Positions 19,370 to 35,523 of a stretch of 64,000 nucleotides of DNA are shown piece by piece. The translations under genes were made by a program, and so were the position numbers. Positions within the stretch are counted from its first letter, which is position 1. Each line of letters begins with the position of its first letter. Under the pieces are notes generated by a model that saw only the letters and a list, made by a program, of their open reading frames with translations, had not been told where the DNA came from and did not search any database. Origin of the DNA: Bdellovibrionota bacterium (GTDB taxonomy: Bacteria > Bdellovibrionota_C > UBA2361 > JBGSMV01); assembly GCA_041739995.1 (NCBI GenBank), contig JBGSMV010000047.1, forward strand, positions 1 through 64,000, given 5' to 3'.

Positions 19370-20065
19370 CTACGGCAAATCAAACACAAGCAGCTCTGCC
19401 TCAGCATTGCCCCGGATCGAACAAAGGCGCTCTTCAGACACCGCTAAGCCATCTCCGGCGGAGAGTGCGACACCCATCACAGAACTGGTGCCACGCACGC
19501 ACTGAACCCACAGCGAGCGCTCGATCTCAATCGACATCTCGAGCGAAGAGTCCGTAGAAAGCAAAAGTGAATAAAGCCTAACGTCTTGATTAACCACCAG
19601 CGATCCTTGCTCCCCGGTTCGACTGACCACCAAGCGCGGCTCTCCCACCGTTTGATCGGGAAATGCTTTTTGATCATAACTAGACGGGAGATTCTGCGCC
19701 TCTGGAAGCAGCCAGATTTGATAGAGATGTAGCGACTCGGTCTCTGAAGGGTTGAACTCACTATGAGTTACCCCTCGACCTGCAGACATGCGTTGAAACT
19801 CTCCGGCTTTAATTTCTGAACCATTACCCATGCTATCTTTGTGGGCCAGGCGTCCCTCTAACACGTAGGTGATAATTTCCATGTTGCGATGCGGATGGGT
19901 ATCGAAGCCCTTCCCAGGAGCTACTCTATCCTCATTCATCACGCGCAGAACGCGAAAACCCATGTGATCAGGATCGTGGTAGCTTCCAAATGAAAATGTG
20001 TGCTTAGCCTGGAGCCAGCCGTGGTCAGCAGAGCCCCTTTCGTCAGAACGCCTTAGATATTTCAT
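19370..20065 (-). CDS. Pirin-family protein (YhhW-like)
   Basis: HGWL..HTFSF, GFDTHPHRNMEIITYV, HKDSMGN, MSAGRGVTHSEFN. Confidence 0.93.
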   Translation of the reverse strand: MKYLRRSDERGSADHGWLQAKHTFSFGSYHDPDHMGFRVLRVMNEDRVAPGKGFDTHPHRNMEIITYVLEGRLAHKDSMGNGSEIKAGEFQRMSAGRGVTHSEFNPSETESLHLYQIWLLPEAQNLPSSYDQKAFPDQTVGEPRLVVSRTGEQGSLVVNQDVRLYSLLLSTDSSLEMSIEIERSLWVQCVRGTSSVMGVALSAGDGLAVSEERLCSIRGNAEAELLVFDLP

Positions 20066-20095
20066 GCAGCAGCCCTTCGAGGAGAATTCTAGGAC

Positions 20096-20140
20096 TTAGC
20101 CAACACAGCCTCAGCCCACAGAGCCTCAGCCCACAGAGCC
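20096..20140 (-). repeat. Three tandem 15-bp copies of the sufB 3' end
   Basis: Minus strand reads GGCTCTGTGGGCTGA GGCTCTGTGGGCTGA GGCTGTGTTGGCTAA (GSVG* GSVG* GCVG*). Confidence 0.85.
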
Positions 20141-21556
20141 TTCCATCTCAAGTTCAATGAGGCGGTTTAATTCGACCGCATACTCAAGCGGCAACTCTTT
20201 AGAGATTGGTTCAATGAATCCGCGCACAATCATCGCACTTGCTTCCTCTTCAGGAATGCCACGACTCATCAAATAGAAGAGCTGTTCCTCCGAGATTTTC
20301 GAAACGCTCGCTTCGTGTCCAATGCTCGAGCGTTTTTCTTGAATCTCGATGTAGGGATACGTATCGGTTCGGCTGTTCTCATCCAACAATAGAGCGTCGC
20401 ACTCCACGTTCGACTTCGCGCCCACTGCGCCGCTATACACCTTACACAGACCACGATAGCTCGAACGACCGCTGCCCTTACTGATGGACTTTGAAATAAT
20501 GCGTGAGGTTGTGTTCGGCGCGGCATGAACGACCTTACCGCCAGCGTCTTGGTGCTGGCCGTCTTTGGCAAAGGCCACGCTCAATATCTCTCCATGCGCC
20601 CGGTCGCCAAGCAAATAAACTGCCGGGTATTTCATGGTGAGCTTGGAACCAAGATTCCCATCAATCCACTCCATGGTCGCATCTTGATAAGCAACTGCTC
20701 GCTTAGTGACCAAGTTGTATACATTGGTGGACCAGTTCTGAATCGTAGAATAGCGAAAGCGCGCGCCTTGTTTTACTACAATCTCAACAACCGCGCTGTG
20801 TAGCGAGTTAGAGCTATAGGTCGGAGCGGTGCAGCCTTCGATGTAGTGACCGTAGGCGCCTTCATCAACGATGATGAGGGTACGCTCGAACTGGCCCATG
20901 TTTTCGGCATTAATTCTGAAATAAGCCTGAAGCGGCACATCGACATTCACTCCCTTGGGGATGTAGATGAAGCTTCCGCCGGACCACACCGCAGAATTCA
21001 ACGCCGCAAACTTGTTGTCGCTCGGAGGAATAACGGAAGCCCAATATTGCTTGAAAAGATCAGGGACTTCCTTGAGCGCCATGTCGGTGTCCATGAAGAT
21101 GACACCTTTGTCTTCCCATTCCTTCTTCAAGGAATGATAAACCACTTCACTCTCATACTGAGCGCCAACACCCGCCAACACGGTTCTCTCGGCTTCGGGA
21201 ATACCAAGACGATCAAAAGTGTTTTTGATATCGGCAGGAACATCCTCCCAAGTTCGACCCTGCTCCTGCACTGGCTTCAGGTAGTAGTAAATTTGCTCGA
21301 AGTCCAAATCTTTGAGTGCGGGGCCACCCCAAGTCGGCATTGGTTTTGAAAGAAAAATATCCAGGCTCTGATGCCTAAATGCACGCATCCAGTCTGGCTC
21401 GTTCTTATGATCTGAAATCTGATCAACAACGGCGTGATCGAGGCCTTTGCGAGTTTTAAATATCGGTGCCGACGGGTCGCTGAATCCGTACTTATAGTCC
21501 TTACCGATCTCGCGGATGGCCTCTGCTTCGATTTCTGCGCGTCCTTGGCTTTCCAT
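20126..21556 (-). CDS. sufB: Fe-S cluster assembly scaffold SufB
   Basis: [50 protein letters not shown]. Confidence 0.97.
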
Positions 21557-21920
21557 TCTCTACATCGCCCTTATTTGACTGCCCTATACCGGGTCGCCGC
21601 TACAAATGCGCGGCAACCACCTTGAAGGCGCTAGCCCTCATATCCTAACTAAGCATCTCTCACTCAAAACAGCCGCACTCCATGAGACAGCTGCCACAAG
21701 CGAGAACCCGCCAGAAGGAGCCTAGTGTAGCTAATTCCACTCACACTACTCCAGCTATTGTTGAGTGTGTCATTCAATTACTATTCTGTCAAACAAACCA
21801 GATTCTATCATATTGAAAAGATTTATATTCTCTGTCTGGGTCGCCCTTGCTCGGGCGTATTGCGGTGACAAATAGTAACGACCACCATTATAGTTAAATA
21901 GTACACGGGAAATACTCTAC

Positions 21921-22304
21921 ATGCAGAACCAAGCTCCTACCAAAAAAACCATTCTCGTAGTCGAAGATGATGGCGATATTCGTGCGGCACTTTCGACCAT
22001 GCTCGAAGCACTCGGGTTTAATCATGCCTGCTTTGGTTCCGCGCGTGAGGCGCTCGAGGCGCTTGCTGGACTACAAATTGACTTGGCGTTGCTCGACATC
22101 ATGATGCCAGAAATGAATGGCTACGAGCTTCTGCGCGAGATTAAAAAAATTCCTCAGTACAAAGATTTACCTATCATAATGGTGACCGCCAAAGACCAGG
22201 ACAGCGAGATCCTAGAAGGGTACCAGTTCGGAGCCGACTACTATATTACCAAGCCCTTCACTACCAAGCAGCTCGAATATGGCTTGAAGATTTTTTTAAG
22301 CTAG
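21921..22304 (+). CDS. Single-domain response regulator
   Basis: VVEDD, LDIMMPEMNG, TAK, KPF. Confidence 0.9.
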   Translation: MQNQAPTKKTILVVEDDGDIRAALSTMLEALGFNHACFGSAREALEALAGLQIDLALLDIMMPEMNGYELLREIKKIPQYKDLPIIMVTAKDQDSEILEGYQFGADYYITKPFTTKQLEYGLKIFLS

Positions 22305-22331
22305 TTCTTCCACCTCAACCTCAGTCACCAC

Positions 22332-23033
22332 ATGTTTGCTACCGTTGACTCACTGCACTTTGAACATCCGCGTGGATTCGTGGTGCTCGAAGGAGTGAAC
22401 GGTGCAGGAAAATCAACTCTCCGTGACCGATTACAGGCCTTTCTTGTTGAGAAAGTACAGCGCGTCGTCTGTACCTTCGAACCCGGCGCCACTTCACAGG
22501 GCAAAGAACTAAGAAAGGCCCTTCTGTCGCACTCTGCCGGAAAGCTTGCCCCTCTTTCTGAACTGTTTCTCTTTGCTGCCGATCGACATGAGCACGTCAC
22601 TCAGATTATCGACCCCGCCATCAAGCGTGGCGAGTTTGTGCTGTGCGACCGCTACCTGTACTCGACACTCGTGTTTCAAGGCTACGGTCGCGGCCTAGAC
22701 CTCGCCGCAATCAACACGCTAAATGACTTGGCGGTCTGCGGGACCTTGCCCGATCTGGTCTTACTACTCGACCTTGATCCTCTCGAAGGACTGGCGCGCA
22801 CCAAGGCTCGCGCCAGTGCGGGAACTAAGAACTCTGGTCCGACCACCGAGGACGCTTTTGAACGCGAGCACGCTGATTTTCAGCACAGGCTGCGTGATGG
22901 GTTTTTAAAAATCGCGAAAGAACGCCCCGAACCGTTTATTGTGATTGATGCCTCGCTCTCAGCCGATGAGGTTTTTCGCGTTGCGGCAAAAGCCCTTACC
23001 AGCCTTTTGCAGGCGAAATTGCCGCAAAAATAG
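22332..23033 (+). CDS. tmk: Thymidylate kinase
   Basis: EGVNGAGKST, EPG, LFAADR, CDRY..S..FQGYGRG. Confidence 0.95.
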   Translation: MFATVDSLHFEHPRGFVVLEGVNGAGKSTLRDRLQAFLVEKVQRVVCTFEPGATSQGKELRKALLSHSAGKLAPLSELFLFAADRHEHVTQIIDPAIKRGEFVLCDRYLYSTLVFQGYGRGLDLAAINTLNDLAVCGTLPDLVLLLDLDPLEGLARTKARASAGTKNSGPTTEDAFEREHADFQHRLRDGFLKIAKERPEPFIVIDASLSADEVFRVAAKALTSLLQAKLPQK

Positions 23034-23137
23034 CCCAGATATCACCTTAACTCCGTGGGCAAAGTACCGCAAAAAAGTACTCTCACCGCCCCATTTCCAT
23101 TTCGACATTTACAGGTCTCTCGCGCTAGTGTTCACCC

Positions 23138-24169
23138 ATGCCGGAAGAGATCGTTGGACACCGCACACAACGCGACGTACTAAGTCGCCTCTTTCACCAA
23201 GGCAAGCTGCCATCGACGATTCTGCTCGCCGGTCCAGGGGGGATTGGGAAGAGCCTGGCCGCCAAAGAACTCGCCAGAAGTTTAGTGTGCGAACACTCCG
23301 GCTCTCAGTCTCAATCTGGCTCTCGTTCGGAATACGGCGGATGCACGACTAGTGCGACTTGTCATGGGTGCCGCGTATTTGATGCGAGCAATCATCCTGA
23401 CGTGCATTGGGTTTCTGTAGCAGATAAGGAACTCGCCAGCGTTGAGTCCTGTCGCGAACTACTCTTTTCTCTTCACCTCGCTCCACTGAGTGCGAAGGTT
23501 CGTGTCGTAGTATTCGATCAGGCCGAACGCTTAACTCTTGCGGTCGCCAATACTCTGCTGAAAATCCTAGAAGAGCCTCCCGCTAATACATACTTTATTC
23601 TGGTCGCGTCCAATGCCTCACGGCTACCACCGACGCTACTGTCGCGATGCCAAATCTGGTTTTTCGATGTTCTCACTGTCGCACAGATCAAAGAAATACT
23701 TTCGAGACAAGACACGCTCTCATCGGAAGAAATTAATGCGTTGGCACTTATAGCAGACGGTGCCCTTGAAGACCTCGACCAGATTCGAGCGCACATTGGA
23801 GAGTGGCAGCGACTGTGCAGTGCTATCGATGAGATCATAGGCGGCTCAAGAGCCCAGGCAGCACTGCTTGCTTCGGAACTCAGCAAGAGCAAAGACTCCC
23901 TTCCCACCGCTTTGAAGCTCATTCGCATACATGCGAGACAGCGCCTTCTTCAGTATGCACATGAGGGCGCTTCGCGTCGCGAAGTGTCCAGCCGACTATC
24001 GGTTTTTGTCACAAACCTAATGAGCGCTGAGTACTTCCTTTTTGAGCGCAACCTCGCGCCCGTATCTGTATTGTCAGTGATCTTCGACGCTTTAGCGGGC
24101 CAGTCCTACGCCGCGTTTACGAGCGTAACCAACAGTGCTACCGTTTTATCCAGAATTGCGGCGAGCTAG
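23138..24169 (+). CDS. holB: DNA polymerase III delta' subunit
   Basis: GPGGIGK, zinc-binding Cys cluster, HPD, ANTLLKILEEPP, LLSRC; follows tmk. Confidence 0.9.
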   Translation: MPEEIVGHRTQRDVLSRLFHQGKLPSTILLAGPGGIGKSLAAKELARSLVCEHSGSQSQSGSRSEYGGCTTSATCHGCRVFDASNHPDVHWVSVADKELASVESCRELLFSLHLAPLSAKVRVVVFDQAERLTLAVANTLLKILEEPPANTYFILVASNASRLPPTLLSRCQIWFFDVLTVAQIKEILSRQDTLSSEEINALALIADGALEDLDQIRAHIGEWQRLCSAIDEIIGGSRAQAALLASELSKSKDSLPTALKLIRIHARQRLLQYAHEGASRREVSSRLSVFVTNLMSAEYFLFERNLAPVSVLSVIFDALAGQSYAAFTSVTNSATVLSRIAAS

Positions 24170-24317
24170 AGCACTGCCGAGTCGAGCGTTGGCATGTCGA
24201 GAGAACTACGTGTGGCGTCATTTGATTACACCGCGAAACAAATATCGCTTAGGCGAAAACCTCTCTCACTTGAGTATAGCGATTTTAACTAGGCCCTTGA
24301 TAATCAAAGAGCGAACT

Positions 24318-24791
24318 ATGAGCACAGATGCACCTCCCTCAGCGTTACCCACTCCCGTACCCGTGAATCCGGATCCGTCGACCCCTAACTTGTCGACCTC
24401 CGCACATGTGAGCCCAGATACCACCACGACTACGCCAGCTGCGGCCCCTGTTCCGTTTGAACAAGTTGACATTGATCATTTTGCGAAAGTGAAACTCCGC
24501 GTTGCTCGCATAGAGAGTGCCGAGGCGATCCCAAAATCCAAAAAGCTACTCAAGCTACAGGTGGATGTAGGCCCGCTGGGCAAACGACAGATCCTTGCCG
24601 GAATTGCCCAGCATTATCAGCCTGAAACTCTTATCGGCAGAAAAATCGTGATCGTAGCAAACCTTAAGCCCGCATCACTGATGGGACATGAGAGTCAGGG
24701 AATGTTGCTTGCAGGTTCTAGTCCTGATGGATCCATCCTGGCTTTGCTCGCCCCTGATTCAACACTTCCTGAGGGCAGCGAAGTAAGGTAG
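24318..24791 (+). CDS. Stand-alone MetRS C-terminal tRNA-binding OB domain (Trbp111/CsaA-like)
   Basis: IDHFAKVKLRVARI, KLLKLQVDVG, RQILAGIA..Y, NLKP..LMG.ESQGMLL; occupies the metG slot between holB and tatD. Confidence 0.85.
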   Translation: MSTDAPPSALPTPVPVNPDPSTPNLSTSAHVSPDTTTTTPAAAPVPFEQVDIDHFAKVKLRVARIESAEAIPKSKKLLKLQVDVGPLGKRQILAGIAQHYQPETLIGRKIVIVANLKPASLMGHESQGMLLAGSSPDGSILALLAPDSTLPEGSEVR

Positions 24792-24864
24792 CGCTCGACA
24801 CGATCAACAGACTCGCATGTCTTATGTTCAAACCTGACAGTGAGAATCACCGCGGGGGATTGCT

Positions 24865-25653
24865 TTGAACTCGTTACCCTGTCTCATTGACTCCCACACC
24901 CACCTAACTGCCAAAGAGTTTGACGCAGATCGCCAACAGGTGCTTGATCGCGCTCGCGCGCTGGGGGTGACTTGCTTTGTCTCTGTCGGAGCAGGTTACG
25001 GCATAGAGTCAGCTTCGGCAGCAGTGAAGCTAGCCGAGCAGCAGACGGATGTTTATGCCAGTGTCGGCCTGCACCCCAATGATGCTGCCGCTGCGTTTGA
25101 CGATTCATTGCTACCCGCACTTGCGACACACTCCAAAGTGGTAGCAATTGGTGAAACTGGTTTCGATTTCTATTGGAAGCACGCCACAAAAGAGCAGCAA
25201 GAGCGTTGGTTCCGGCACCAAGTAGAACTTGCTCTGAGTGTCAGAAAACCGATCATCATTCATTCAAGAGAGGCAGGGCTTGAATGTCTTGCATTGCTTA
25301 AGGAATACCCAGTACATGAGGTCGGTGGCGTATTCCACTGTTTTGCTGAAGATCTTGAGTTTGCTAAGCGCCTGCGAGACATAAACTTTAGTATCTCGAT
25401 TCCGGGAACTGTTACTTTCAAAAAGGCCGACAACGTGAGGACCGTAGCCGAGGGAATTCCGCTGGACCAACTTCTGATTGAAACCGACGCACCCTTTCTG
25501 GCTCCAGAGCCCTTTCGCGGGAAAAGAAATGAGAGTAGCTACATGACGCACACCGCCGAGCGAATCGCCGCCGTACGCAATATTTCGGTAGCGGAACTTG
25601 CGGCGGCGACCGCAGAAAATGCTCGTAAGCTTTTTAACCTTCCCCAATCCTAG
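24865..25653 (+). CDS. tatD: TatD-family nuclease
   Basis: IDSHTHL, GLHP, AIGETGFD, IIHSRE, FHCF, ETDAPFLAP. Confidence 0.93.
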   Translation: MNSLPCLIDSHTHLTAKEFDADRQQVLDRARALGVTCFVSVGAGYGIESASAAVKLAEQQTDVYASVGLHPNDAAAAFDDSLLPALATHSKVVAIGETGFDFYWKHATKEQQERWFRHQVELALSVRKPIIIHSREAGLECLALLKEYPVHEVGGVFHCFAEDLEFAKRLRDINFSISIPGTVTFKKADNVRTVAEGIPLDQLLIETDAPFLAPEPFRGKRNESSYMTHTAERIAAVRNISVAELAAATAENARKLFNLPQS

Positions 25654-25667
25654 AAAAGTTTTACGCT

Positions 25668-26648
25668 ATGATGTTGATGGCTCGTCCGGTCCTTGCACAG
25701 CTGCTCCTACTCCTTCTTACCTGCGGTGAGTGCTTGAGTGCTCCACTCAAGGTCGTCACCACTACAGGAATGATCGGAGATACCGCCAAACAAATTGGGG
25801 GCCCGTTAGTCGAAGTCACTGCATTAATGGGCGAAGGCGTTGATCCGCACTTATACAAACCTGCTCCCGGCGATATTCGACTTCTTAGTCAGGCAGATGT
25901 GGTCCTTTTTAATGGTCTTCATCTAGAAGGCCGTATGGGTGAGGTTCTTGAAAAATTAGCTCCTCGTCAACCTGTCTATTCGGTGACAGACGCAATTGAT
26001 CGCGCATCCTTAAGGAGCCCTCCAGAGTTCGAGGGCAACTATGATCCGCATGTCTGGTTCGACGTCGCCTTGTGGTCACAAGTCGCTCAGCACATAACTG
26101 AACTTCTTGTGAAGCACCTCCCCAACGAGCACGCTCAACTCACGGCACAGTCTGCCGCCTACATTGCCGAACTCACTGCGCTGGATGCCTGGGTGCGAGA
26201 GTCTATTCATTCCATACCTGAGTCGTCTCGAGTTCTCGTTACCGCCCACGATGCGTTTGGATACTTTGGACGAGCGTATCAGATCGAGGTGCTTGGTATT
26301 CAAGGAATTAGCACTGATAGTGAAGCCAGTATTCGCGAAGTCTCGAAGCTTGTTTCCATAATTGCGGATAGAAAGGTGCCTGCCGTCTTCGTAGAGTCTT
26401 CTGTGCCTCAGAAAACGATTCAATCACTAGTTGAAGGTGCCGCCGCAAGAGGTTGGACCGTGCGCATCGGCGGCGAGCTATTTAGCGACGCCATGGGAGC
26501 GCCAGGAACACCGGAGGGAACTTACATTGGAATGGTGCAACATAACGTGCGCCTCGTTTCAACGGCGCTTGGCGGCCGAATGCTTAAATTAAGTGCTCCC
26601 CAACATTCCGGTTCCAACTCAGCAGATTCTATTGTCAGAGCAAGTTAG
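25668..26648 (+). CDS. troA: Mn/Zn/Fe ABC transporter substrate-binding protein (TroA-like)
   Basis: GVDPHLY, NGLHLEG, DPHVWFD, TAHDAFGYFG, FVESS, LFSDAMG. Confidence 0.9.
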   Translation: MMLMARPVLAQLLLLLLTCGECLSAPLKVVTTTGMIGDTAKQIGGPLVEVTALMGEGVDPHLYKPAPGDIRLLSQADVVLFNGLHLEGRMGEVLEKLAPRQPVYSVTDAIDRASLRSPPEFEGNYDPHVWFDVALWSQVAQHITELLVKHLPNEHAQLTAQSAAYIAELTALDAWVRESIHSIPESSRVLVTAHDAFGYFGRAYQIEVLGIQGISTDSEASIREVSKLVSIIADRKVPAVFVESSVPQKTIQSLVEGAAARGWTVRIGGELFSDAMGAPGTPEGTYIGMVQHNVRLVSTALGGRMLKLSAPQHSGSNSADSIVRAS

Positions 26649-26649
26649 G

Positions 26650-28521
26650 CTACCCTGGCGCACTCAAGAGCTGAATCGCTAATGCGGGCTGTTGATTTGC
26701 CTGAGCGAGGATAGCCGCCGCCGAACTTCTAAGTATGTTGAGCCTTGCAAGTTCGGCACTCTCAAGCGCGATATCAGCATCAACAATTCGCGAGCGAGCA
26801 GCGGCGTAGTTCTCTGTAGTTGCTTGTAAGGTACCCAGTGCACTACCAAGGCGGCTTTGAAAGGCCCCAAGAACTCCGCGCTGAACGGCAAGTTGGTCTT
26901 GCTTGTTCTTGAATATACCAAAAGCTTCCCTCGCCTCTGCCATGGTTTCAAGACTGAACTCGAGCAGTGGCGCTACTCCACTTTCGGTTTGCGAAGTAAG
27001 AACAGAGGTTGCCCCAGTGCGAACTCCAGCAACATCAAGGACACCGTCTCCATTGAAGTCGGCAAGTGTAAATCGACCGAGCTTGCCTGGAGCAGACGAA
27101 GTTTGCCTATCGTTAAAAGTACCATCGCCGTTACCTAAGGCAATCTTAACTTCATTGGTTCCAGAGCCAATGAGATCCAAAATTCCATCTCCATTAATAT
27201 CAGCGAGTTCAACGGAGTTGTTCACATCTCCGAATGCGATACTCGTTGCTGCTGCAAAGCCTCCGCTACCGTTGCCCAAGCGAATCTCAATATCTCCCTC
27301 GTTAAAGCTGCTATCAACGATGTCGAGGATGCCGTCCCCATTTACATCGCCGACAGAAATATCGTTGACGTCGATTCCAAAATTAGTGCCGAGCGAAGTC
27401 GCAACTCCAAAATTCCCATCACCACTGCCGACGCTGGTCCATAAATTTCCTCCAGCAAATCCACTCGAGCTTGCAGCAAGATCGAGAGTACCGTTTCCAT
27501 CGAAGTCTCCAAGCACGACCCGGTTAATAGTGAACTGTCCACCGATGACCACCTGGTCCGAAAATGAGAACGAGCCATCGCCATCATTGGTAAGAATATT
27601 GACTCCCTGACTGTTCGCCATGGCAAGGTCAAGTCTGCCATCGCCGTTCAAATCACCCGCCACAAGGTCAGTGGGACTGAGGCTATTGGCCGAGACTACA
27701 GGCGCAGCAAACGTCCCATCGCCATTATTCGCATACGACAGAATCTGCGTAGCGCTTGCCACAACGATATCTTGGAAACCACTGCCGGTAAAATCTCCTA
27801 CGACAAGTCGCGAAACGTTGCCAGAGAAGCTGGCAATAAGCGCTGCGTTTGAGAACGTGCCGTCACCGTTTCCGTAGCTGACATTAATGCTGGAATTACC
27901 ACCTCCACTGCTCAAGCTCACAAGGTCTTGAATCCCGTCACCGTTAATGTCCGCCGACTCTACTCCATTTCCGTTGGTTCCTGCAGTGAATGAGTAGCTC
28001 GTAGCCGCTGACAGAGCACCAGTACCAAGTGCACCTCCAACACGCGAAAAAAGAGAGCCCGCTTCGCCGTATCCAGCCTGAAGCCTCAGCCCATCTACCG
28101 ACCCATCAAAAAGGTTAACGCCATTGAATTTGGTAGTGCGTGCGATACGAAAGAACTCGTCGCGCAGTGCTTGAGCTTCGTTGTTCAGTGATGATCGCTG
28201 GGATTGGCCGAGAGTGCCTGAAAGGGCTTGTTGCCCAAGCTCCTTTAGTCGTTCAACTACTCCACCAAGCTGACCAAGAGCGCTCTCTGCTATGTTGATA
28301 GCTGATACGCCATCTCCGATGTTACGAATTGCCTGGGTATATACTCTTCGATCGGCACCGAGGGACTCAGAAATTGCAAGACCTGCCGCATCATCACTCG
28401 CACGATTGATACGTTGCCCAGATGACAGGCGCTCAAACACGCCACCGAGCGCTTGCTCACTACGAGTGAGTCTAGTCTGCGCCTGGAGTGACGCAATGTT
28501 TGAGCCAATGGTGATAGCCAT
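26650..28521 (-). CDS. Flagellin with an internal 7x FG-GAP/VCBS beta-propeller
   Basis: Flagellin N domain (ERLSSGQRINRASDDAAGLAIS, TKFNG) and C domain (LGAFQSRL, SRIVDADIA.E, LAQANQQP); seven D-x-N/D/T-G-D/S/N-G-x-x-D repeats in between. Confidence 0.92.
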   Translation of the reverse strand: MAITIGSNIASLQAQTRLTRSEQALGGVFERLSSGQRINRASDDAAGLAISESLGADRRVYTQAIRNIGDGVSAINIAESALGQLGGVVERLKELGQQALSGTLGQSQRSSLNNEAQALRDEFFRIARTTKFNGVNLFDGSVDGLRLQAGYGEAGSLFSRVGGALGTGALSAATSYSFTAGTNGNGVESADINGDGIQDLVSLSSGGGNSSINVSYGNGDGTFSNAALIASFSGNVSRLVVGDFTGSGFQDIVVASATQILSYANNGDGTFAAPVVSANSLSPTDLVAGDLNGDGRLDLAMANSQGVNILTNDGDGSFSFSDQVVIGGQFTINRVVLGDFDGNGTLDLAASSSGFAGGNLWTSVGSGDGNFGVATSLGTNFGIDVNDISVGDVNGDGILDIVDSSFNEGDIEIRLGNGSGGFAAATSIAFGDVNNSVELADINGDGILDLIGSGTNEVKIALGNGDGTFNDRQTSSAPGKLGRFTLADFNGDGVLDVAGVRTGATSVLTSQTESGVAPLLEFSLETMAEAREAFGIFKNKQDQLAVQRGVLGAFQSRLGSALGTLQATTENYAAARSRIVDADIALESAELARLNILRSSAAAILAQANQQPALAIQLLSAPG

Positions 28522-28570
28522 TTCCTTGGCGTTCCTTTAAATCCCCGAGCGGCAAATCCTTTCACCGCTC
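28522..28570 (-). promoter_or_regulatory. Putative CsrA-binding leader of the flagellin mRNA
   Basis: Four GGA motifs in about 50 nt; the first lies in the loop of a GAGCGG/CCGCTC hairpin and the last ones overlap the RBS region. Confidence 0.55.
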
Positions 28571-28576
28571 TCTATG

Positions 28577-28604
28577 AGGTCGGAAGGATGAGTTAACTTC
28601 TTTA
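28577..28604 (-). promoter_or_regulatory. Putative sigma28 (FliA/SigD) promoter of the flagellin
   Basis: TAAA-N16-TCCGACCT versus consensus TAAA-N15/16-GCCGATAA. Confidence 0.55.
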
Positions 28605-28715
28605 TAAACCGAGGAGATTAGCTGAGAGTCTCGGATCGATAACCGGGCTTATTCCGATATTCTAATCATTTTTTGTAGGAAGTTCCCGTAGAGCAGCGCT
28701 ACTGAACTTGGAACA

Positions 28716-28734
28716 TGGTGCCCGGCCGTGGACT
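28716..28734 (-). other. Possible tRNA 3'-end fragment (att-site-like remnant)
   Basis: Minus strand AGT-CCACG-GCCGGGC-A-CCA fits T-loop end, T-stem, acceptor strand, discriminator and CCA; the rest of a tRNA is absent. Confidence 0.3.
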
Positions 28735-29121
28735 AGACTGACTGACTTAGTGCCCCGCAACTCTCCCTCACCAACACCCTCCTGAACTCTGACTCGCAGT
28801 GAGAACACGTTGTTCGGGTAGCTCTCTCGCTACCAGGAAAGAATTTTGCGTGAGAAACGGATTAGGGTTAGAGATTTTGGTCCGAAATCATTTCCCACTC
28901 CCTCTAGGGAGCCCTCCAGCATTTTGGCCTGGTGTGGCAGCTTGCTTGCGCCTTACTCACCGCGAACTTGAAATGGCCTAGCGCTCGAAGAGTAGCCATT
29001 GTGGATTCAATGCAGCGGATCAATCTGACCTGCAATAGGTAAGGGCTGGCTGATTGCGGCAGCTTTCCGTGGTACTTTTGCTGATGCCCCAAACGCAATA
29101 ATTTGGGTGTCAAAATTGTAC

Positions 29122-29149
29122 TCTAGCAACCACCTACTCGTACCGACTC
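29122..29149 (+). promoter_or_regulatory. Possible sigma28 promoter of the YjfB-like gene
   Basis: TCTAG-N15-ACCGACTC, same spacing as the flagellin promoter; downstream GGGAA-ttggat-TTCCC hairpin with GGA in the loop. Confidence 0.35.
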
Positions 29150-29221
29150 ACTAGTGGGAATTGGATTTCCCTCGCTTGCGACCCCTCCCGTGAACGCTTG
29201 CGGCTAAAACAAGGAGTTAGT

Positions 29222-29413
29222 GTGGCCAGTGACGATCTCTCGATATCTGGAATCTCTGCCAACAAGCTGGATGCCATCGCTCAAAAGTTTCAAGTAGCTA
29301 TCGTCAAAAAGGCGATTGATTCTCAGGGCCAGGTTGCGAAGCTGTTGATTGACTCCGCCACCTCCTCCGCTCCTCCTCCCGGCAAAGGACAAAGGATCAA
29401 CACGGTCGCCTAA
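29222..29413 (+). CDS. YjfB-like small putative motility protein
   Basis: AAGGAG then GTG; VAIVKKAIDSQ...LI...PGKGQRINTVA matches the YjfB_motility pattern. Confidence 0.7.
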   Translation: MASDDLSISGISANKLDAIAQKFQVAIVKKAIDSQGQVAKLLIDSATSSAPPPGKGQRINTVA

Positions 29414-29549
29414 GCCCTGGTACCTTGGGACAAGCGAGCAAGGCCTCTTATTTCTCTTCGAGCATAACGTCCGACTTGTCTCGACGGCGCTTCGGCCCTA
29501 AGTTCGGTTTGGGGCACGGCTAAGGAAGGGAACCCCTTGGAGGACAAGC

Positions 29550-31238
29550 ATGGACACCACTCGACGACAAGCAGTGCGGGTACTTCTCGCAGGCGGCGCC
29601 GCACTTTATCTGCAACCTTGGATGGTCGGTTGTAGCTCTTCGCAACTCCGAAACAGGTCCGTCGTTCGAGAAAAGCAGCGTCATTTTTCCCCGATAGATA
29701 GAACTCTCGCTGATATCGCCCCGCGCAAATTCTTTGCCGACAACCCCGATCGATCGCATGCGGTGCTTTGGGACAAACATGTGTTTCTTAAATCAAATGG
29801 CCTCGTCATTCCCCCACCGACACAAGAAGTTCCACTCATAATTATTGGTGGCGGCATCGCGGGGCTCTTCTCTGCCTATCTTCTTCGCGAGCATCAGCCC
29901 GTAATTCTCGAACAAGACAGTCACTTTGGTGGAAACTCAAAAGGCCAATCCTGGCGTGACATTGATTACTCAATCGGCGCTGCATACTTCATCGAACCAG
30001 AGGGCGGAAGCGACATCGATACACTTTTGAGAGAACTAGAAATCGATAAACTTTGGACCATCAAAGAGGAAGAGGACCCCGTCGCAGTTAACGGATCGAT
30101 TTATAAGGGATTTTGGACTGGGGAAAGCCTGGCAGGAGACCCCGCGGGACTCGCTCAGATTGAAAAGCTTAGTCAGTATTTTTCTGCAGTGAACGAAGGT
30201 GAGGAAATCGCCTTCCCCGATATTCCAATCACTGACCCCGACAGCGTTTCCTACATACACGATCTCGACAGCCTCTCCTTCCGAGCTCATCTAGAAAGCA
30301 TCGTCGGAGGAAAACTACATGCACAAATTGACACTGCTATTGAGCAGTATTGCTGGTCTTCTCTCGGCGCATCTGCGTCAGAGTTAAGTGCCGCAGGCGG
30401 GGTCAATTTCTATGCCTCAGAATTTGGCAAGATTGCAGTGCTTCCCGGCGGTAATGCCGCCGTCGCAGAGCGGGTGCTCGAACGATTGGGCGAGCATCTT
30501 CCACAAGAAAATCTAAGACCAAGCTCACTCGTGTTTGATGTGCAGGTTACCGAGAGTGGCGTCCAAGTCGCGTATCTCGATGCCTCTGGAGCCGTACAGT
30601 GTATTGCCGCTAAAGCCGTAGTGATGGCCTGCCCTAAATTTATCGCCGCAAAAATTCTGCGTGACATTGAGCCAGAGCGAGTAGCCGCGATACAAAAGTT
30701 AAAATATCGAAGCTATTTAGTCGCCAACCTATGCCTCGGCGAAACTAGTCTCGATCCGTTCTATGACTTGTATGTATTGGGTGACGGTAAAATCGACTCC
30801 CAGAACCCAATGGCTGCTTCCAAAGAGCAGAAAGTAACCGACGTGGTTCTTGCGAATTACGCGCGTGCTGGTGCCAGTGACACGGTTCTTAGTTTATACA
30901 GAGGGCTTCCCTACGATGGAGCAAGAGGCGAGCTTTATGTCCCCGGTGCCTATGACAGATATCGTGCTGAATTCGAGCAACAAATCCTCGGATCAATCTT
31001 GCCTGCACTTCAGCTTAAGCCTGAACAAATAGTTGATTTAAGAATTGCACGCTGGGGGCATCCACTGGTTGTCTCAGCTCCGGGATTAATCAAAGGCGGT
31101 ACCATTGACCAGCTCCGCAAACCTTTTAAGCATCGGGTTTTCTTCGTTGAACAAGACAATTGGGCGCTCCCTGCTTTTGAGACCTCGGTCACCGAGGCGA
31201 TGTATTGGGCTCCTCAGGTGAAACAAGCACTCGCTTAG
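29550..31238 (+). CDS. Tat-exported (lipo)protein FAD-dependent oxidoreductase, amine-oxidase-like
   Basis: TRRQAV twin-arginine, MVGC lipobox-like, IIGGGIAGL dinucleotide fold, GAAY, RWGHP. Confidence 0.8.
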   Translation: MDTTRRQAVRVLLAGGAALYLQPWMVGCSSSQLRNRSVVREKQRHFSPIDRTLADIAPRKFFADNPDRSHAVLWDKHVFLKSNGLVIPPPTQEVPLIIIGGGIAGLFSAYLLREHQPVILEQDSHFGGNSKGQSWRDIDYSIGAAYFIEPEGGSDIDTLLRELEIDKLWTIKEEEDPVAVNGSIYKGFWTGESLAGDPAGLAQIEKLSQYFSAVNEGEEIAFPDIPITDPDSVSYIHDLDSLSFRAHLESIVGGKLHAQIDTAIEQYCWSSLGASASELSAAGGVNFYASEFGKIAVLPGGNAAVAERVLERLGEHLPQENLRPSSLVFDVQVTESGVQVAYLDASGAVQCIAAKAVVMACPKFIAAKILRDIEPERVAAIQKLKYRSYLVANLCLGETSLDPFYDLYVLGDGKIDSQNPMAASKEQKVTDVVLANYARAGASDTVLSLYRGLPYDGARGELYVPGAYDRYRAEFEQQILGSILPALQLKPEQIVDLRIARWGHPLVVSAPGLIKGGTIDQLRKPFKHRVFFVEQDNWALPAFETSVTEAMYWAPQVKQALA

Positions 31239-31332
31239 GTTTGAGAGCACATGGCGGACAAATCGCTCGGGTCGTCTGAGCGAAGCATCTTGATGAATTT
31301 ACTTTAACTTTGCGACAGGCGATTATGCGAAG

Positions 31333-32088
31333 GTGGAAATCGCTGCTGTTGAAGTTCATGACCTGACCGTTACGTATCATCGTAAGCCGGTGCTTTGGAA
31401 CATCGACGTATCTCTACCGGCGAATAAACTAATCGCGATCGTCGGGCCGAACGGAGCCGGAAAATCTACTCTTCTCAAAGCTGCTCTGGGACTAGTGCCA
31501 ATTGCCACTGGCAAGCTCACCGTCTGCGGAAAGCCAGCCTCAAAGAGCAAAGGACTGATCGGCTACATACCACAACGAGAAAGCGTCGATTGGGATTTTC
31601 CAATAAGTGCCCTCGAAGTAGTGGTCATGGGCAGATACGGAAAAATCGGCTGGATTCGTCGCGCCGGCAAAGCTGACTTTGCGGCGGCACGAGAGTGTTT
31701 AGATGCGGTCGGCATGGCGGATCTTGCGGACCGTCAAATTAGTCAGCTCTCGGGTGGTCAGCAGCAAAGAGTCTTTCTCGCACGAGCTCTCGCACAAGAC
31801 GCCACAGTATATTTGATGGATGAACCTTTCGCAGGCGTCGACGCTGCTACCGAACACGCCATTGTGTCTGTGCTTCAACGTATGCGAGCCGAGGGAAAAA
31901 GTATTATCGCTGTTCACCACGATCTACAAACAATTCCTACCTACTTTGACTGGGTGTTGATGCTTAACGTTCACCTTGTCGCTGTAGGACCCACTGAGCT
32001 GGTATTTACTAAGGAAAATCTGCACGCTACCTACGGTGGCCGTCTGGTCGTGCTCGATAGAGTGGGCGAGGCCATGAGAAAGTCGTAG
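31333..32088 (+). CDS. troB: Mn/Zn/Fe ABC transporter ATPase (TroB-like)
   Basis: GPNGAGKST, YIPQRESVDWDFP, LSGGQQQR, MDEPF, HHDL. Confidence 0.92.
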   Translation: MEIAAVEVHDLTVTYHRKPVLWNIDVSLPANKLIAIVGPNGAGKSTLLKAALGLVPIATGKLTVCGKPASKSKGLIGYIPQRESVDWDFPISALEVVVMGRYGKIGWIRRAGKADFAAARECLDAVGMADLADRQISQLSGGQQQRVFLARALAQDATVYLMDEPFAGVDAATEHAIVSVLQRMRAEGKSIIAVHHDLQTIPTYFDWVLMLNVHLVAVGPTELVFTKENLHATYGGRLVVLDRVGEAMRKS

Positions 32089-32132
32089 ATGAGATCTCCA
32101 CGCACTAAAGGCCCTGTCGGCCCAAGAACTCG

Positions 32133-32331
32133 CTAGGAGTCTGTGACACAGGTCTGTGACACAGCCCTGTTTGTCAGGGTCCGCCTTCGCTCACATGTGC
32201 CTGTGCAGCCATTTAATTTGATTAGGCTTCCCCCTTCGCTTCCTCGTTCGCGAAGGCTACGGAGGATAGGAAAGCTTCGGGGGACGAGTCGGCGGGACGT
32301 CGTCGTCTGTGCCTGTGTCACAGACTCCTAG
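32133..32331 (-). mobile_element. MITE-like element, copy 2 (inverted relative to copy 1; carries nested insertions)
   Basis: CTAG-GAGTCTGTGACACAG ... CTGTGTCACAGACTC-CTAG perfect TIRs; 13-bp internal duplication at 32139-32164; 60-bp insertion at 32232-32291. Confidence 0.85.
32232..32291 (+). repeat. Two nested 30-bp palindromic (REP-like) elements
   Basis: Outer CCCTTCGCT|AAAGCTTCGGGGGACGAGTCG is split by inner TCCTCGTTCGCGAAGGCTACGGAGGATAGG (32241-32270); both are absent from MITE copy 1. Confidence 0.7.
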
Positions 32332-32373
32332 AATTACTCACGAAAATAGCCCCAATAAGTGCGCTCCCAATAC

Positions 32374-32401
32374 TAAGGCGACGGAGAAAAGCTTCCGATT
32401 T
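32374..32401 (+). promoter_or_regulatory. Possible sigma28 promoter of the subtilase
   Basis: TAAG-N16-TCCGATTT ending 10 nt before ATG 32412 (no RBS; near-leaderless). Confidence 0.35.
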
Positions 32402-32411
32402 TCATTATTCG

Positions 32412-34361
32412 ATGAGGAGTCCAGAACGTAAATTACTTTTAAGACTTGTCCTCATCACAGGCTTCCTGGCGTCCAGCGGACTTACTAGCTCCGCATATGC
32501 GGATTCCCACCCCAAGCTCCCACGAATAAGCCCCGACAGAGCCATTCTCTTTCATTCAAGCAACTCAAATATCGCCGCAGCTCATCGGACAATGCGGTTC
32601 GACCGATATCCAGGCCTTGAACCTGAAGCACTAGGCCCACATGCCATCTTGGTACAACGACGTGAGGTTACTCTAAACACCGCGGCAGCACGTGGCGCAC
32701 TAAAGTCAATCCCTCTTTCGCGGCGACATAATCCCTGCCTTAAGGATCGGCGCATCAAGCGATTGGTCAAAAAGCATGGCCTCAACTGTGAACCGGACTT
32801 CATTGTTGAAGCTAGTCTGACTCCAAACGACGCCCTCTACTCAAGTTTGTGGGGCATGCAGGGTGCCTTCGGAATAGGAGCCCCAACGGCATGGAACGTA
32901 AGTAACGGCAGTGGGGTAACCGTCGCGGTCCTCGACACAGGCGTTGATAGAAACCACCCCGATCTTGCCGCTAACATGTGGATCAACACTGGCGAGATAG
33001 CATCAAACGGAATCGATGATGACGCAAACGGATACATCGATGACGTCAATGGTTGGGACTTCTATGACAACGACAATGATCCCTCGGACATGCACGGACA
33101 CGGCACCCACGTTTCAGGAACAATTGCGGGTACCGGCAATAATTCAATTGGCGTGATCGGTGCAGCGTACGGCGCAAAAATCATGGCACTTCGCTTCATT
33201 GGACCAGGTGGAGGACTCACCAGCCATGCTATCTTCGCCCTATACTATGCGATAGATAAGGGCATTCCCATCTCAAATAATTCTTGGGGCGGTGCCGGAT
33301 TTAGCTCTGCACTTCAAGCGGCGATTAGTGATGCGAGCACCTCGGGTATGTTGTTTGTTGCTGCGGCCGGGAATAATGGAACCAATAATGACTCGGTCCC
33401 ATTCTACCCGGCGTCGTATACTTTACCTAATATCGTTTCAGTTGGATCTATCACCAGTACAGGAACGATTTCGAATTTCTCGAACTACGGTGCCACCTCT
33501 GTGGATCTCTTCGCACCAGGCAGCGGAATTTTGAGCAGCCTGCCATCAAACTCCTACGCTTCGTGGGATGGTACCTCAATGGCAAGTCCACACGTGGCGG
33601 GTGTAGCCGCCCAAATTCTTAGTGTAAATTCCGGCTTCTCCACCGCGCAGATAAAGGATGCGCTGTTGAACAACAGCAGCTCGGATGCAACATACCTCGG
33701 AGCCTGTCTCACCTCGGGACGATTGAATGCTGCGACTGCGGTGCAGATTGCGAACACGCCAACACCGACACCGACGCAATCACCCACCACTCCGCAACCG
33801 GGCGCCACGATAACACCCGCTCCTACTTCAACCCCAGTTCCCTCTTCTCCAACCCTTACGCCTACTCCCTTACCACCCCCATCTCCCGAAGATGAAGACG
33901 AGCCGGACGCACCAGATGAACAAGAGTATGGTATCTTCGTTTCCTCCGGCGAGACCGAGAATGTCCTCGTTCCCGGAACGCCTGCAGAGCTCATAGTGTT
34001 GTCACAAACATCCCGCGAACGCGTAAGTCTGTTGCTGGAAAGAACGCTACCAGGTCAAGCTCAGGGCACTAAGGTTCGCTGCGCTCGAACAGGACGCTTT
34101 AGAACAAATACAGAAGACTCGGCCGCATTCCTGCGCACAAGAGTCAGCCCCCTGGCTCGATACCTCCCGGGGCTCTCTATCTCACTACTGAATGCCTCAA
34201 ACCAAGCAGTCGCCAGTGTCGATTTACCAGTCGAGGGAAACATCGCCGACTTAGTAAGCTCTCGCCGAGCTCGAATCCTTGGCCAGCGCGCTTGTCAGAG
34301 TATTGCCGGCAACCTCCGCCTTCTTGGGGCCGCCCGCTCAAGATATAAGAAGGTCGCATAA
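32412..34361 (+). CDS. Secreted S8 subtilisin-like serine protease with PT-rich linker and C-terminal domain
   Basis: VAVLDTG, HGTHVSG, AAAGN, GTSMASPHVAG; PTPTP linker. Confidence 0.93.
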   Translation: MRSPERKLLLRLVLITGFLASSGLTSSAYADSHPKLPRISPDRAILFHSSNSNIAAAHRTMRFDRYPGLEPEALGPHAILVQRREVTLNTAAARGALKSIPLSRRHNPCLKDRRIKRLVKKHGLNCEPDFIVEASLTPNDALYSSLWGMQGAFGIGAPTAWNVSNGSGVTVAVLDTGVDRNHPDLAANMWINTGEIASNGIDDDANGYIDDVNGWDFYDNDNDPSDMHGHGTHVSGTIAGTGNNSIGVIGAAYGAKIMALRFIGPGGGLTSHAIFALYYAIDKGIPISNNSWGGAGFSSALQAAISDASTSGMLFVAAAGNNGTNNDSVPFYPASYTLPNIVSVGSITSTGTISNFSNYGATSVDLFAPGSGILSSLPSNSYASWDGTSMASPHVAGVAAQILSVNSGFSTAQIKDALLNNSSSDATYLGACLTSGRLNAATAVQIANTPTPTPTQSPTTPQPGATITPAPTSTPVPSSPTLTPTPLPPPSPEDEDEPDAPDEQEYGIFVSSGETENVLVPGTPAELIVLSQTSRERVSLLLERTLPGQAQGTKVRCARTGRFRTNTEDSAAFLRTRVSPLARYLPGLSISLLNASNQAVASVDLPVEGNIADLVSSRRARILGQRACQSIAGNLRLLGAARSRYKKVA

Positions 34362-34581
34362 CTTAGGCGTCTTATATCCACCAAGCAGACGCGAGGCCTA
34401 AGCCACAAACCATGTGTAACATGAAGTAAGACAGGAAAATGGCCGCCCAAAACAGCAGCTCTGCGCCATTTTTCAAGAAGCCAAAAATATGTTCGTGAGT
34501 GCCCGCTCAGCTTCAAACTCGCTTAGGTTAGGTCACGCACTATACCTCCCAATCTTTCCCAATACAGGCTAGTTTATTGGG

Positions 34582-35523
34582 GTGTTGAGCCCGATTACCT
34601 TTTCTCTCTTTTCTGACCCCACTGCACGCATCGTTATCTTGGGATGTGGCGTTCTTGGCGCCTGCGCCGGAGCGCTTGGCTGTTTTGCCATTCTGCGCAG
34701 ACGAGCACTGGTCAGCGATGCTGTCGCCCACGCCGCTTTGCCCGGTGTGTGCGTTTCGTACCTCATCTTTGGCGAGAGAAACCTACCCGCGCTAATTTTG
34801 GGAGCCTTCGTCTTCGGACTGCTGGCCGCGGGATCTATTGCACTCGTACAGCGTTACTCACGCATCAAAGACGACGCTGCTACCGCACTAGCAATCGGTG
34901 GATTTTTTGGCTTGGGCATCGTGCTTTCACGGATCATTCAGAACAGCCCCACAGGAAATCGCGCAGGCCTTGATGGGTTTATTTTCGGTAAAGCGGCCAG
35001 CTTAGTCTGGAGTGATGTCGTTTCGATTTCCATTCTTGCCATTTGCATTCTGGGCACTTTAGCTTTGTTCTTCAAAGAATTCTCTGCGGTGTGTTTTGAT
35101 CGAGGCTTTTGCGCCAGCCTTGGTTGGTCGGTGTTACTTTATGAACTTCTACTAGTAGTGCTCGTCACGGCCTGTGCCGTAGTAGCATTACCTGCAACCG
35201 GCGCAGTCTTGATTGTCGCTTTGTTAATCATCCCCGGCATCACCGCCCGATTTTGGACCGACTCACTGCTACGCATGGTGCTGCTGGGCGGATTGATCGG
35301 ATTCTCCAGTGCAGTGCTCGGTACGATTGTGAGTGCAACGGTGCCACCTCCTGGATCTGATGGACGCGGTGGCTGGCCGACAGGTCCGATGATTACTCTG
35401 GTCGCTTCCGCGCTCTTTTTCCTTTCGTTGTTTTTCTCCCCTCGCCGCGGGGTAGTAGCTGATTGGATAAGAACCAGACGCATGCGCAAGCTGCTAGCCA
35501 AACAACTCCCTGAGGTTCTATGA
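34582..35523 (+). CDS. troC: Mn/Zn/Fe ABC transporter permease (TroC-like)
   Basis: LVSDAVAHAALPG, RIKDDAA, FGKAA, PTGP. Confidence 0.88.
   Translation: MLSPITFSLFSDPTARIVILGCGVLGACAGALGCFAILRRRALVSDAVAHAALPGVCVSYLIFGERNLPALILGAFVFGLLAAGSIALVQRYSRIKDDAATALAIGGFFGLGIVLSRIIQNSPTGNRAGLDGFIFGKAASLVWSDVVSISILAICILGTLALFFKEFSAVCFDRGFCASLGWSVLLYELLLVVLVTACAVVALPATGAVLIVALLIIPGITARFWTDSLLRMVLLGGLIGFSSAVLGTIVSATVPPPGSDGRGGWPTGPMITLVASALFFLSLFFSPRRGVVADWIRTRRMRKLLAKQLPEVL

Follow-up and report, generated by a model that had tools for sequence, protein, structure and literature searches.

In the first 64,000 nucleotides of contig JBGSMV010000047.1 of a Bdellovibrionota bacterium (GenBank assembly GCA_041739995.1), hereafter the window, an open reading frame (ORF) on the minus strand encodes P0001, a 623-residue flagellin in which a predicted complete, closed seven-bladed FG-GAP β-propeller stands between the N- and C-terminal regions that build the filament core of flagellins. 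Flagellin outer domains are diverse and very few have an assigned function. The outer-domain class represented by P0001 is real and uncharacterized, and it belongs among the known flagellin outer domains rather than constituting a new kind of system, since P0001 is one member of a large family that is already publicly deposited. We think it reasonably probable that P0001 is a filament-type flagellin exposing one propeller per subunit, so that the propellers form a varied and likely ligand-binding filament surface; export, incorporation into the filament, exposure without a sheath, any binding activity and the ligand are the parts of this reading that we infer.

The ORF contains no internal stops. 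Its two ends were assigned by Pfam to Flagellin_N (residues 6–141, 118.6 bits against a cut-off of 26.6) and Flagellin_C (residues 542–619, 58.7 bits against 23), in keeping with a sequence-only reading of this DNA that had proposed intact flagellin ends around a middle domain. The middle is matched by FG-GAP_3 (168.8 bits in seven stretches, E = 3.6e-50), a value that places the propeller repeat assignment far outside chance, and also by FG-GAP (69.5 bits in six stretches). Seven calcium-type loops recur at a spacing of 47–53 residues (Table 1); all seven had been pointed out by the sequence-only reading, and six fit the pattern D-x-[DN]-x-[DN]-G-x-x-D, the second (DFTGSGFQD) being degenerate. 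A companion motif, G-x-G-D-G-x-F, follows loops 1–6 at residues 217, 265, 312, 365, 416 and 463 (four of them recovered by a regular expression), and LGTGAL, which is related to it, precedes loop 1 together with one strand (residues 164–177). This is the arrangement claimed earlier, with the motif behind six loops and LGTGAL ahead of the first, and the span then given for the middle domain, approximately 26990–28030, agrees with residues ~165–510. Across an alignment of ten family members, G166 and G168 are invariant, as is the LSSGxRINxAxDDAAG signature in the N-terminal core, where the invariant columns include R31–G47. Across four public runs, all from one study, unitigs cover the gene with zero differences and span both the N-core/propeller junction (for example, 27543–28922 and 27891–28721) and the propeller/C-core junction (26670–27035 and 26860–27315); because they bridge both junctions without differences, the fusion of core and propeller is not an assembly chimera among paralogs.

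An AlphaFold2 model of P0001, built on a ten-sequence family alignment, has a mean predicted local distance difference test score (pLDDT) of 74, with values of ~80–88 in the propeller part. The model shows the flagellin helices, a D1 hairpin, about 30 strands over residues 166–513 and one long C-terminal helix (residues 527–610). Alignment with VIA-align placed model residues 168–517 on residues 32–530 of the integrin αIIb head over 323 residues (Z 32.3, root mean square deviation (rmsd) 2.5 Å), and integrin α heads ranked first. The top Foldseek matches were the seven-bladed fungal lectins AAL2 and PVL (E = 5.5e-13, ~22% identity over ~370 columns); the structural matches also included the UmbA4 propeller, described in its entry title as in complex with S. 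griseus TUA (9oee), and the helical part of the model matched solved flagellar filaments. At the sequence level, the family profile matched the flagellins of solved filaments at both ends, in two stretches each (E = 1.5e-73 and weaker), and the sole non-flagellins among the 60 profile matches listed were AAL2 (8.1e-26) and PAL (1.7e-21). In the repeat register of P0001, the seventh repeat supplies three strands of the last blade and the segment ahead of the first repeat supplies one more; the two ends of the insert thus become neighbors, as they must for a domain inserted in D1. The closed seven-bladed propeller proposed by the sequence-only reading is thereby borne out on the predicted model, where the match extends over the whole integrin head, and the velcro closure proposed with it fits the sequence register.

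Integrin α propellers keep the calcium-loop motif in about four blades, whereas all seven blades of P0001 carry it, one in degenerate form. Otherwise the integrin α head (αIIb; 3zdz, 9e8a) displays the same seven-bladed FG-GAP propeller with DxDxDG-type hairpins (Z 32, rmsd 2.5–2.6 Å, ~323 residues), at 13–14% identity; P0001 possesses no β-subunit partner, thigh or calf legs or membrane anchor, and its propeller sits within a flagellin. Both by sequence and by Foldseek, the solved proteins closest to the insert are the fungal lectins PVL, AAL2 and PAL (2bwr, 4tqj, 5mb4). As described in the portion of PMC4483166 available to us, AAL2 and PVL have integrin-like blades of ~56 residues, calcium sites and a 3+1 velcro closure like that of the P0001 register, and a long connecting segment holds an Asn/Asp-Trp-His pocket for N-acetylglucosamine (GlcNAc) in six blades. 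The lectins are free soluble proteins, unlike P0001, whose blades measure 47–53 residues and whose propeller contains a single Trp and no His. A PVL/AAL2-type GlcNAc lectin was rejected on these grounds, the pocket being absent from P0001; Trp is also absent from 26 of 40 family propellers. The loops are putative calcium sites and are best read as structural.

The sequence-only reading had treated the gene as singular, and in this it did not hold: the gene is one member of a large multi-copy family, as emerged from the survey of architecture and paralog number which that reading had itself proposed. The source genome (3.81 Mb in 81 contigs, 91% complete) contains 24 Flagellin_N matches, 23 of them over the cut-off. 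Of 17 paralog ORFs scanned with Pfam, five combine Flagellin_N, FG-GAP_3 and Flagellin_C, two combine Flagellin_N with a weak FG-GAP remnant and four are short (264–328 residues as called, 286 counted from the conserved start); those remaining are long with other middles, or FlgL-like, a separate FlgL-like gene lying at G000:C36:118260–119255. The FG-GAP flagellin at C42:107621–109496 is split by a frameshift. It belongs to a pair of divergent flagellin genes ~360–460 bp apart (C42:107621–111787), one of FG-GAP type and one of WD40/PD40 type, each with its C-terminal part in another frame. The N- and C-terminal parts of a flagellin at C79:156580–158000 are likewise in different frames, and a copy at C54:9425–10495 is devoid of the C-terminal domain. 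An N-terminal fragment on C80 overlaps in sequence with the 5′-cut ORF that opens C54, and the two look like a single gene that the assembly has broken. Because sequencing depth is low (~3–6), some of these frameshifts may be sequencing errors rather than pseudogenes; as far as the sequences tell, seven or so FG-GAP flagellins of the source genome are apparently intact.

Beyond the source genome, Flagellin_N is present in 38 of 41 relatives (own genome included), with up to 38, 30 and 25 matches per genome. Matches to P0001 at E ≤ 1e-50 occur in 23 of the 41 genomes, spanning 13 of 21 families; most cover residues 1–620 and lie in frames of 600–690 residues, and one relative (G013) has 24 such matches to P0001, including a tandem array on its contig C33. 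Phylum-wide, matches at E ≤ 1e-60 were recorded in 45 of 124 genomes (25 of the 73 that are of high quality) and in 35 of 64 genera, all three counts being lower bounds, with no more than ten candidates scored per genome. The family profile identified the fusion in 30 of 30 fetched loci, with a single frame end to end in 26, and five to seven canonical loops per propeller were counted in 39 of 40 family members. For flagellins of ~620–650 residues that match P0001 at their ends only, a different middle domain was considered and rejected: 16 of the 17 fetched carry six or seven FG-GAP loops, none carries PD40-like repeats, and one locus is cut by a contig end. Among the best 120 family-profile matches in a large protein collection, 101 carry Flagellin_N, FG-GAP_3 and Flagellin_C, under deposited names such as ‘flagellin-like hook-associated protein FlgL’, ‘VCBS repeat-containing protein’ and ‘FG-GAP-like repeat-containing protein’. 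The nearest named relatives are labelled Bdellovibrionota or uncultured Bdellovibrionales. At 19 long-match loci in named Bdellovibrionota genomes the fusion was found once (L015), the other readable loci being tandem flagellins of 272–291 residues. A genome of the same genus (G001) lacks any close ortholog of P0001 (39–41% identity at best), and two proteins from other public assemblies (P0002 and P0003) are 75% identical to P0001, which together suggest rapid gain and loss of individual paralogs. Judged by these comparisons, the family is real, maintained, large and already present in public databases under generic names.

A second class of propeller flagellin was observed in the source genome. 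The 622-residue flagellin at G000:C22:86973–88841 (L093/L157) has a middle without a Pfam match; its model (pLDDT 70) matches seven-bladed S9-peptidase and WD40 propellers (Z 20.7–17.9, ~290–305 residues), and full-length relatives occur in four other genomes (L158–L161, L167, L169). Fields et al. (2024) sorted flagellin outer domains into 682 AlphaFold clusters (PMC11532411), and one sentence in the accessible portion of that paper mentions ‘WD40-repeats in cluster #55’; it may be this WD40/PD40-like class, rather than the FG-GAP class, that corresponds to cluster #55. FG-GAP, integrin, VCBS and Bdellovibrio are all absent as words from the main text of the paper. The VCBS supercluster paper (PMC8023676) defines the calcium-loop and FG-GAP features, and in the part of it available to us the string ‘flagell’ does not occur. 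Full-text literature searches found no description of a flagellin with an FG-GAP propeller, the WD40 sentence being the nearest.

To place the fusion in the history of the flagellins, we used a maximum-likelihood tree built on D0/D1 columns only (246 columns; 65 rows comprising 33 fusion, 30 short and two other long flagellins). All fusion flagellins lie on one side of a single branch, corresponding to one change, with a Shimodaira–Hasegawa-like approximate likelihood ratio (SH-aLRT) support of 91, under the 95 mark; the core tree is consistent with one ancient fusion without proving one. Mean conservation over 32 fusion proteins is 0.64 in the N core, 0.48 in the propeller and 0.60 in the C core. 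Within the propeller, the calcium loops and the G-x-G-D-G-x-F motifs are conserved in the same proteins, and the outer strands and connectors vary and hold insertions and deletions. Mean pairwise identity among 40 sequences follows the same order, at 0.51, 0.32 and 0.46, respectively. The disparity is largest between some paralogs of one genome, whose cores are 82–86% identical and whose propellers are just 34–40% identical. For P0001 and its closest database relative, the values are 86% in the core and 68% over residues 150–540.

Nonsynonymous (dN) and synonymous (dS) divergence was estimated by the Nei–Gojobori method for four within-genome pairs and two between-genome pairs. Within genomes, core dN is 0.12–0.23 at a core dS of 0.8 to saturated, and propeller dN is ~0.7. 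Recent gene conversion of the cores was rejected because dS is saturated or above 1.7 in both core and propeller in three of the four pairs; the tandem pair L115/L154 (genome G009) alone has a lower core dS, ~0.8 against 2.6 in the propeller. Low core dN at saturated or high dS points to strong purifying selection on the D0/D1 cores, as expected for parts that must polymerize. Between genomes, propeller dN is 0.18 against 0.40–0.44 in the cores of one pair, and 0.30 against 0.27–0.60 in the other, so that in both pairs conservation of the propeller equals or exceeds that of the core. The overall pattern fits paralogs with distinct, maintained propellers, in a sample of few pairs.

Taken together, a structural model for this flagellin class can be proposed. 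P0001 would be exported by the canonical flagellar type III apparatus of the genome and would polymerize through its D0/D1 helices, with the closed propeller standing between the N-terminal and C-terminal halves of D1, where flagellins usually have their D2/D3 variable region. Each subunit would thus set one rigid propeller, ~50 Å across, outside the filament core; the Ca2+ loops would be structural, and the variable strands and connectors would form the interaction surface. Many paralogs with conserved cores and unlike propellers would then provide a repertoire of filament surfaces, most plausibly binding surface polymers or other ligands. The sequence-only reading had made its proposal depend on an export apparatus, and flagellar export genes are present: a canonical cluster on contig C36 encodes FliH, FlhB, FlhA (847 bits), FlhF and FlhG together with a FliA-like sigma factor, and the genome also holds two FliD genes and one FliS gene. 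The size of P0001 is no obstacle to polymerization, since flagellins of 564–792 residues with large outer domains form solved filaments (7sn4, 9n59, 9au6). In large-outer-domain flagellins such as E. coli O157:H7 H7 (7sn4) and that of Geovibrio thiophilus (9au6), a conserved D0/D1 core likewise bears a foreign domain at the D1 tip; what distinguishes P0001 is that this domain is an FG-GAP/VCBS integrin-type propeller with calcium loops. Flagellinolysin-type flagellins (flagella_HEXXH; cluster #15 in the available part of PMC11532411) offer a precedent for a functional domain on every filament subunit, although the P0001 insert is a binding-type scaffold and not a peptidase. A flagellinolysin-type enzyme was rejected: P0001 lacks HEXXH and indeed any His, and the Pfam scan detected no peptidase family. 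The case for binding by the propeller draws on analogy with integrins, the AAL2/PVL lectins and the UmbA4 propeller (9oee). An adhesive or prey/host-capturing flagellum with Ca2+-dependent binding is a reasonable, if unproven, hypothesis.

Several observations weigh against a polymerizing, exposed and ligand-binding P0001. The NCBIfam flagellin models match P0001 more strongly than FlgL does (E down to 1.6e-51, against 1.2e-20 for FlgL) but all score under their curated cut-offs, the best at 175.6 against 332, and the Flagellin_C score of P0001, 58.7 bits, falls short of the 88 bits of the short paralogs. The cores of L124 (G039) and L127 (G028), the first of the between-genome pairs above, evolve faster than their propeller, which is unusual for a polymerizing core and runs counter to what flagellins usually show; both rows were flagged for odd composition in the tree. 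The gene stands alone among housekeeping genes, a sigma-28 promoter could not be established upstream of it or of its paralogs, and several of the source genome's flagellin copies contain frameshifts or are truncated. In the same order, some genomes (for example, G005–G008) are flagellated with short flagellins only, which shows that a flagellate can do without the fusion type. Since the family does not conserve the AAL2/PVL sugar pocket, no ligand site was assigned on the propeller. Finally, the available part of PMC13689555 describes Bdellovibrio bacteriovorus as having a single membrane-sheathed flagellum of six flagellins and meeting its prey at the non-flagellate pole; in a sheathed lineage the propellers would not be exposed.

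Of the other explanations, we regard as unlikely a structural or hydrodynamic coat, in which the propellers would pack together and thicken, stiffen or stabilize the filament for swimming in viscous surroundings or biofilms, with no external ligand. A flagellar filament repeats every ~52 Å along the protofilament at outer-domain radius. With AAL2-type propellers measuring ~51 × 27 Å (available part of PMC4483166), near that lattice cell, a near-continuous dense coat is geometrically plausible. In other flagellins, motility is documented to be modulated by outer-domain interactions (PMC8931119 and PMC11532411, in the portions available), and the scaffold motifs are the most conserved part of the propeller. 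Public DNA runs containing the sequence are labelled as biofilm and hot-spring metagenomes (one study, possibly the source sample), with no RNA runs listed among the public runs that contain the gene. What a coat leaves unexplained is why a genome should keep seven to more than 20 paralogs with propellers ~32–40% and cores 82–86% identical, and why orthologous propellers are conserved between genomes. The paralog number could instead reflect variation for its own sake, with one or few of many alternative coats expressed at a time and the propeller serving as a loop-variable scaffold that alters the surface presented to flagellotropic phages, grazers and competitors. In agreement with this, flagellin genes are present in very high copy number (24 Flagellin_N matches in the source genome and as many as 38 in a relative), some of them in tandem arrays (G013:C33), unlike middles stand between conserved flanks, frameshifted and truncated copies are suggestive of birth-and-death turnover, and the same-genus genome is without a close ortholog of the window copy (best 39–41%). 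Synonymous sites are saturated between paralogs, however, so that the diversification is old and not an ongoing arms race; no dN/dS value above 1 was measurable, neither an invertible promoter nor a silent-cassette arrangement was found, and orthologous propellers are conserved in both pairs compared. We consider this explanation somewhat less probable than the coat.

Two further possibilities would remove the propeller from an exposed filament surface. P0001 could be a secreted, non-polymerizing flagellin homologue, its ends serving as export signal and chaperone site and its propeller as a soluble or cell-associated lectin-like factor. Campylobacter FlaC is a secreted flagellin-like protein of this sort in another bacterium. 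The C-terminal domain that is more diverged than in the short paralogs, the long core branches in the tree, the one ortholog pair in which the cores outpace the propeller and the position of the gene apart from the flagellar operons all lean this way. Full-length D0 and D1 are nevertheless retained with the universal signature motifs invariant, the family profile matches polymerized flagellins over both ends, and the cores are under strong purifying selection (dN 0.12–0.23), which an export signal alone would not need; we therefore hold a secreted homologue to be improbable. A sheathed filament, with the propellers facing the inner surface of the sheath and spacing or anchoring it, seems to us the least probable of the four. 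The flagellins of B. bacteriovorus are short and are not known to carry outer domains, which fits the 286-residue paralogs and not the 620-residue class. The source lineage is also a different, uncultured group. In favor of a sheath are the membrane-sheathed, six-flagellin flagellum of B. bacteriovorus (PMC13689555, as above), the Bdellovibrionota or Bdellovibrionales labels of the nearest named relatives and the sheathed Vibrio cholerae flagellins that are the best solved-filament sequence matches, perhaps incidentally. Several flagellin paralogs are a feature shared by B. bacteriovorus and the source genome, which also has short 286-residue paralogs; the numbers differ, the source genome having 24 Flagellin_N matches and its relatives as many as 38, and the accessible part of that paper says nothing of two propeller classes in B. 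bacteriovorus.

The exposed, propeller-bearing filament that we favor admits a stronger version, in which the filament is a multivalent recognition organ. The propeller flagellins of a genome, up to two dozen or more in number and each with a distinct and maintained ligand specificity, would then build a programmable, high-avidity, lectin-like array, directed for example at surface glycans or polymers of prey, hosts or the biofilm matrix, and the WD40/PD40-type class of propeller flagellins would extend the repertoire. We judge this version to be doubtful.

A whole lineage has fixed and multiplied on its flagellins a classical ligand-binding scaffold, the integrin-type calcium-loop propeller. 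To our knowledge, the flagellin copy numbers (24 Flagellin_N matches in a 3.8-Mb genome and up to 38 in a relative) would rank among the highest known. Besides these extreme copy numbers, the family stands out for the presence of two propeller classes together and for the contrast between conserved orthologous and unlike paralogous propellers, a contrast that makes outer-domain function testable with recombinant domains. Were the propellers exposed and ligand-binding, the family would provide a clear natural case of the flagellum as a multivalent adhesin or lectin array, a ready-made display scaffold in which every subunit carries one rigid domain, and a fresh approach to the question of how surfaces or prey are located by Bdellovibrio-like bacteria. 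Were they a mere coat, the family would still be a good target for cryogenic electron microscopy of how a 350-residue disc packs on an 11-protofilament lattice.

Table 1. Features of the propeller flagellin gene and its upstream region, in window coordinates.
Feature	Position	Strand	Basis
Whole FG-GAP-propeller flagellin gene, 623 aa	26650..28521	-	Stop codon 26650–26652; ORF, Pfam, unitigs
N-terminal D0/D1 core, residues 1–163	28033..28521	-	Flagellin_N; model helices 9–33, 45–100, 106–129 and D1 hairpin
Predicted outer domain, seven-bladed FG-GAP/VCBS (integrin-α-type) β-propeller, residues 164–517	26971..28032	-	FG-GAP_3, model, structural matches
Ca-type loop 1, DINGDGIQD, residues 191–199	27925..27951	-	D191, N193, D195, G196, D199 conserved or invariant
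Loop 2, DFTGSGFQD, residues 243–251	27769..27795	-	Two liganding positions degenerate; D243, G248, D251 invariant
Ca-type loop 3, DLNGDGRLD, residues 290–298	27628..27654	-	Motif and family conservation
Ca-type loop 4, DFDGNGTLD, residues 339–347	27481..27507	-	Motif and family conservation
Ca-type loop 5, DVNGDGILD, residues 392–400	27322..27348	-	Motif and family conservation
Ca-type loop 6, DINGDGILD, residues 441–449	27175..27201	-	Motif and family conservation
Ca-type loop 7, DFNGDGVLD, residues 488–496	27034..27060	-	Motif and family conservation
Linker and C-terminal D1/D0 core, residues 518–623	26653..26970	-	Flagellin_C; model helix 527–610; conservation 0.60 (32 members)
Upstream intergenic region, 676 bp	28522..29197	.	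Promoter searches
Divergent YjfB_motility-family ORF, 71 aa	29198..29413	+	PF14070, 29.5 bits against a cut-off of 27

That no other flagellar structural genes lie nearby, as the sequence-only reading had remarked, holds across the annotated interval 19370–36875, with the exception of the 71-residue YjfB_motility ORF. This ORF is the sole match to PF14070 in the whole genome, and an association with the flagellin gene is possible. On the other side, the flagellin stop codon lies 1 nt from that of a convergent ZnuA-family gene; beyond the YjfB ORF follow genes for an oxidoreductase, an ABC ATPase, a subtilase and ABC-3 permeases. Over 25668–36875, the ZnuA-family binding protein, the ABC ATPase and two ABC-3 permeases, one of them fused to an iron-dependent repressor domain, resemble one metal-uptake set. 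The flagellin, the YjfB ORF, an FAD/NAD oxidoreductase and an S8 subtilase break up this set and look like insertions.

In the promoter searches, the E. coli-type sigma-28 −10 box CCGATA was found upstream of just 2 of 22 paralog starts, and no 7-mer occurred in more than 4 of 18 regions upstream of flagellins. A sigma-28-like candidate, TAAAG-N17-CCGAC, was spotted by eye in the intergenic region upstream of the window flagellin; the loose pattern TAA[AG]-N14-17-[CGT]CGA[CT], which was defined post hoc, was present in 5 of 19 regions upstream of flagellins, compared with 53 of 1528 background upstream regions. Predictions of sigma-70 promoters and terminators over 26300–29300 returned one and three sites, respectively, not above shuffled sequences and none of them in the upstream region.

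Elsewhere in the genome, the two FliD cap genes stand side by side and adjoin a short flagellin (C6:54412–62354, L139), directly beyond which lies a gene for a TraG/VirD4-type type IV coupling protein. Besides the canonical flhA, two extra FHIPEP (FlhA-family) genes are present, at C47:35831–37840 (L136) and C5:15130–16863 (L137). One of the two directly follows Tad/Flp pilus genes (RcpC, a CpaF-like ATPase and two TadB/C), the other is accompanied by a YscJ/FliF-family protein, a sigma factor and a TPR protein, and both are possibly orphan genes or remnants of non-flagellar type III systems.

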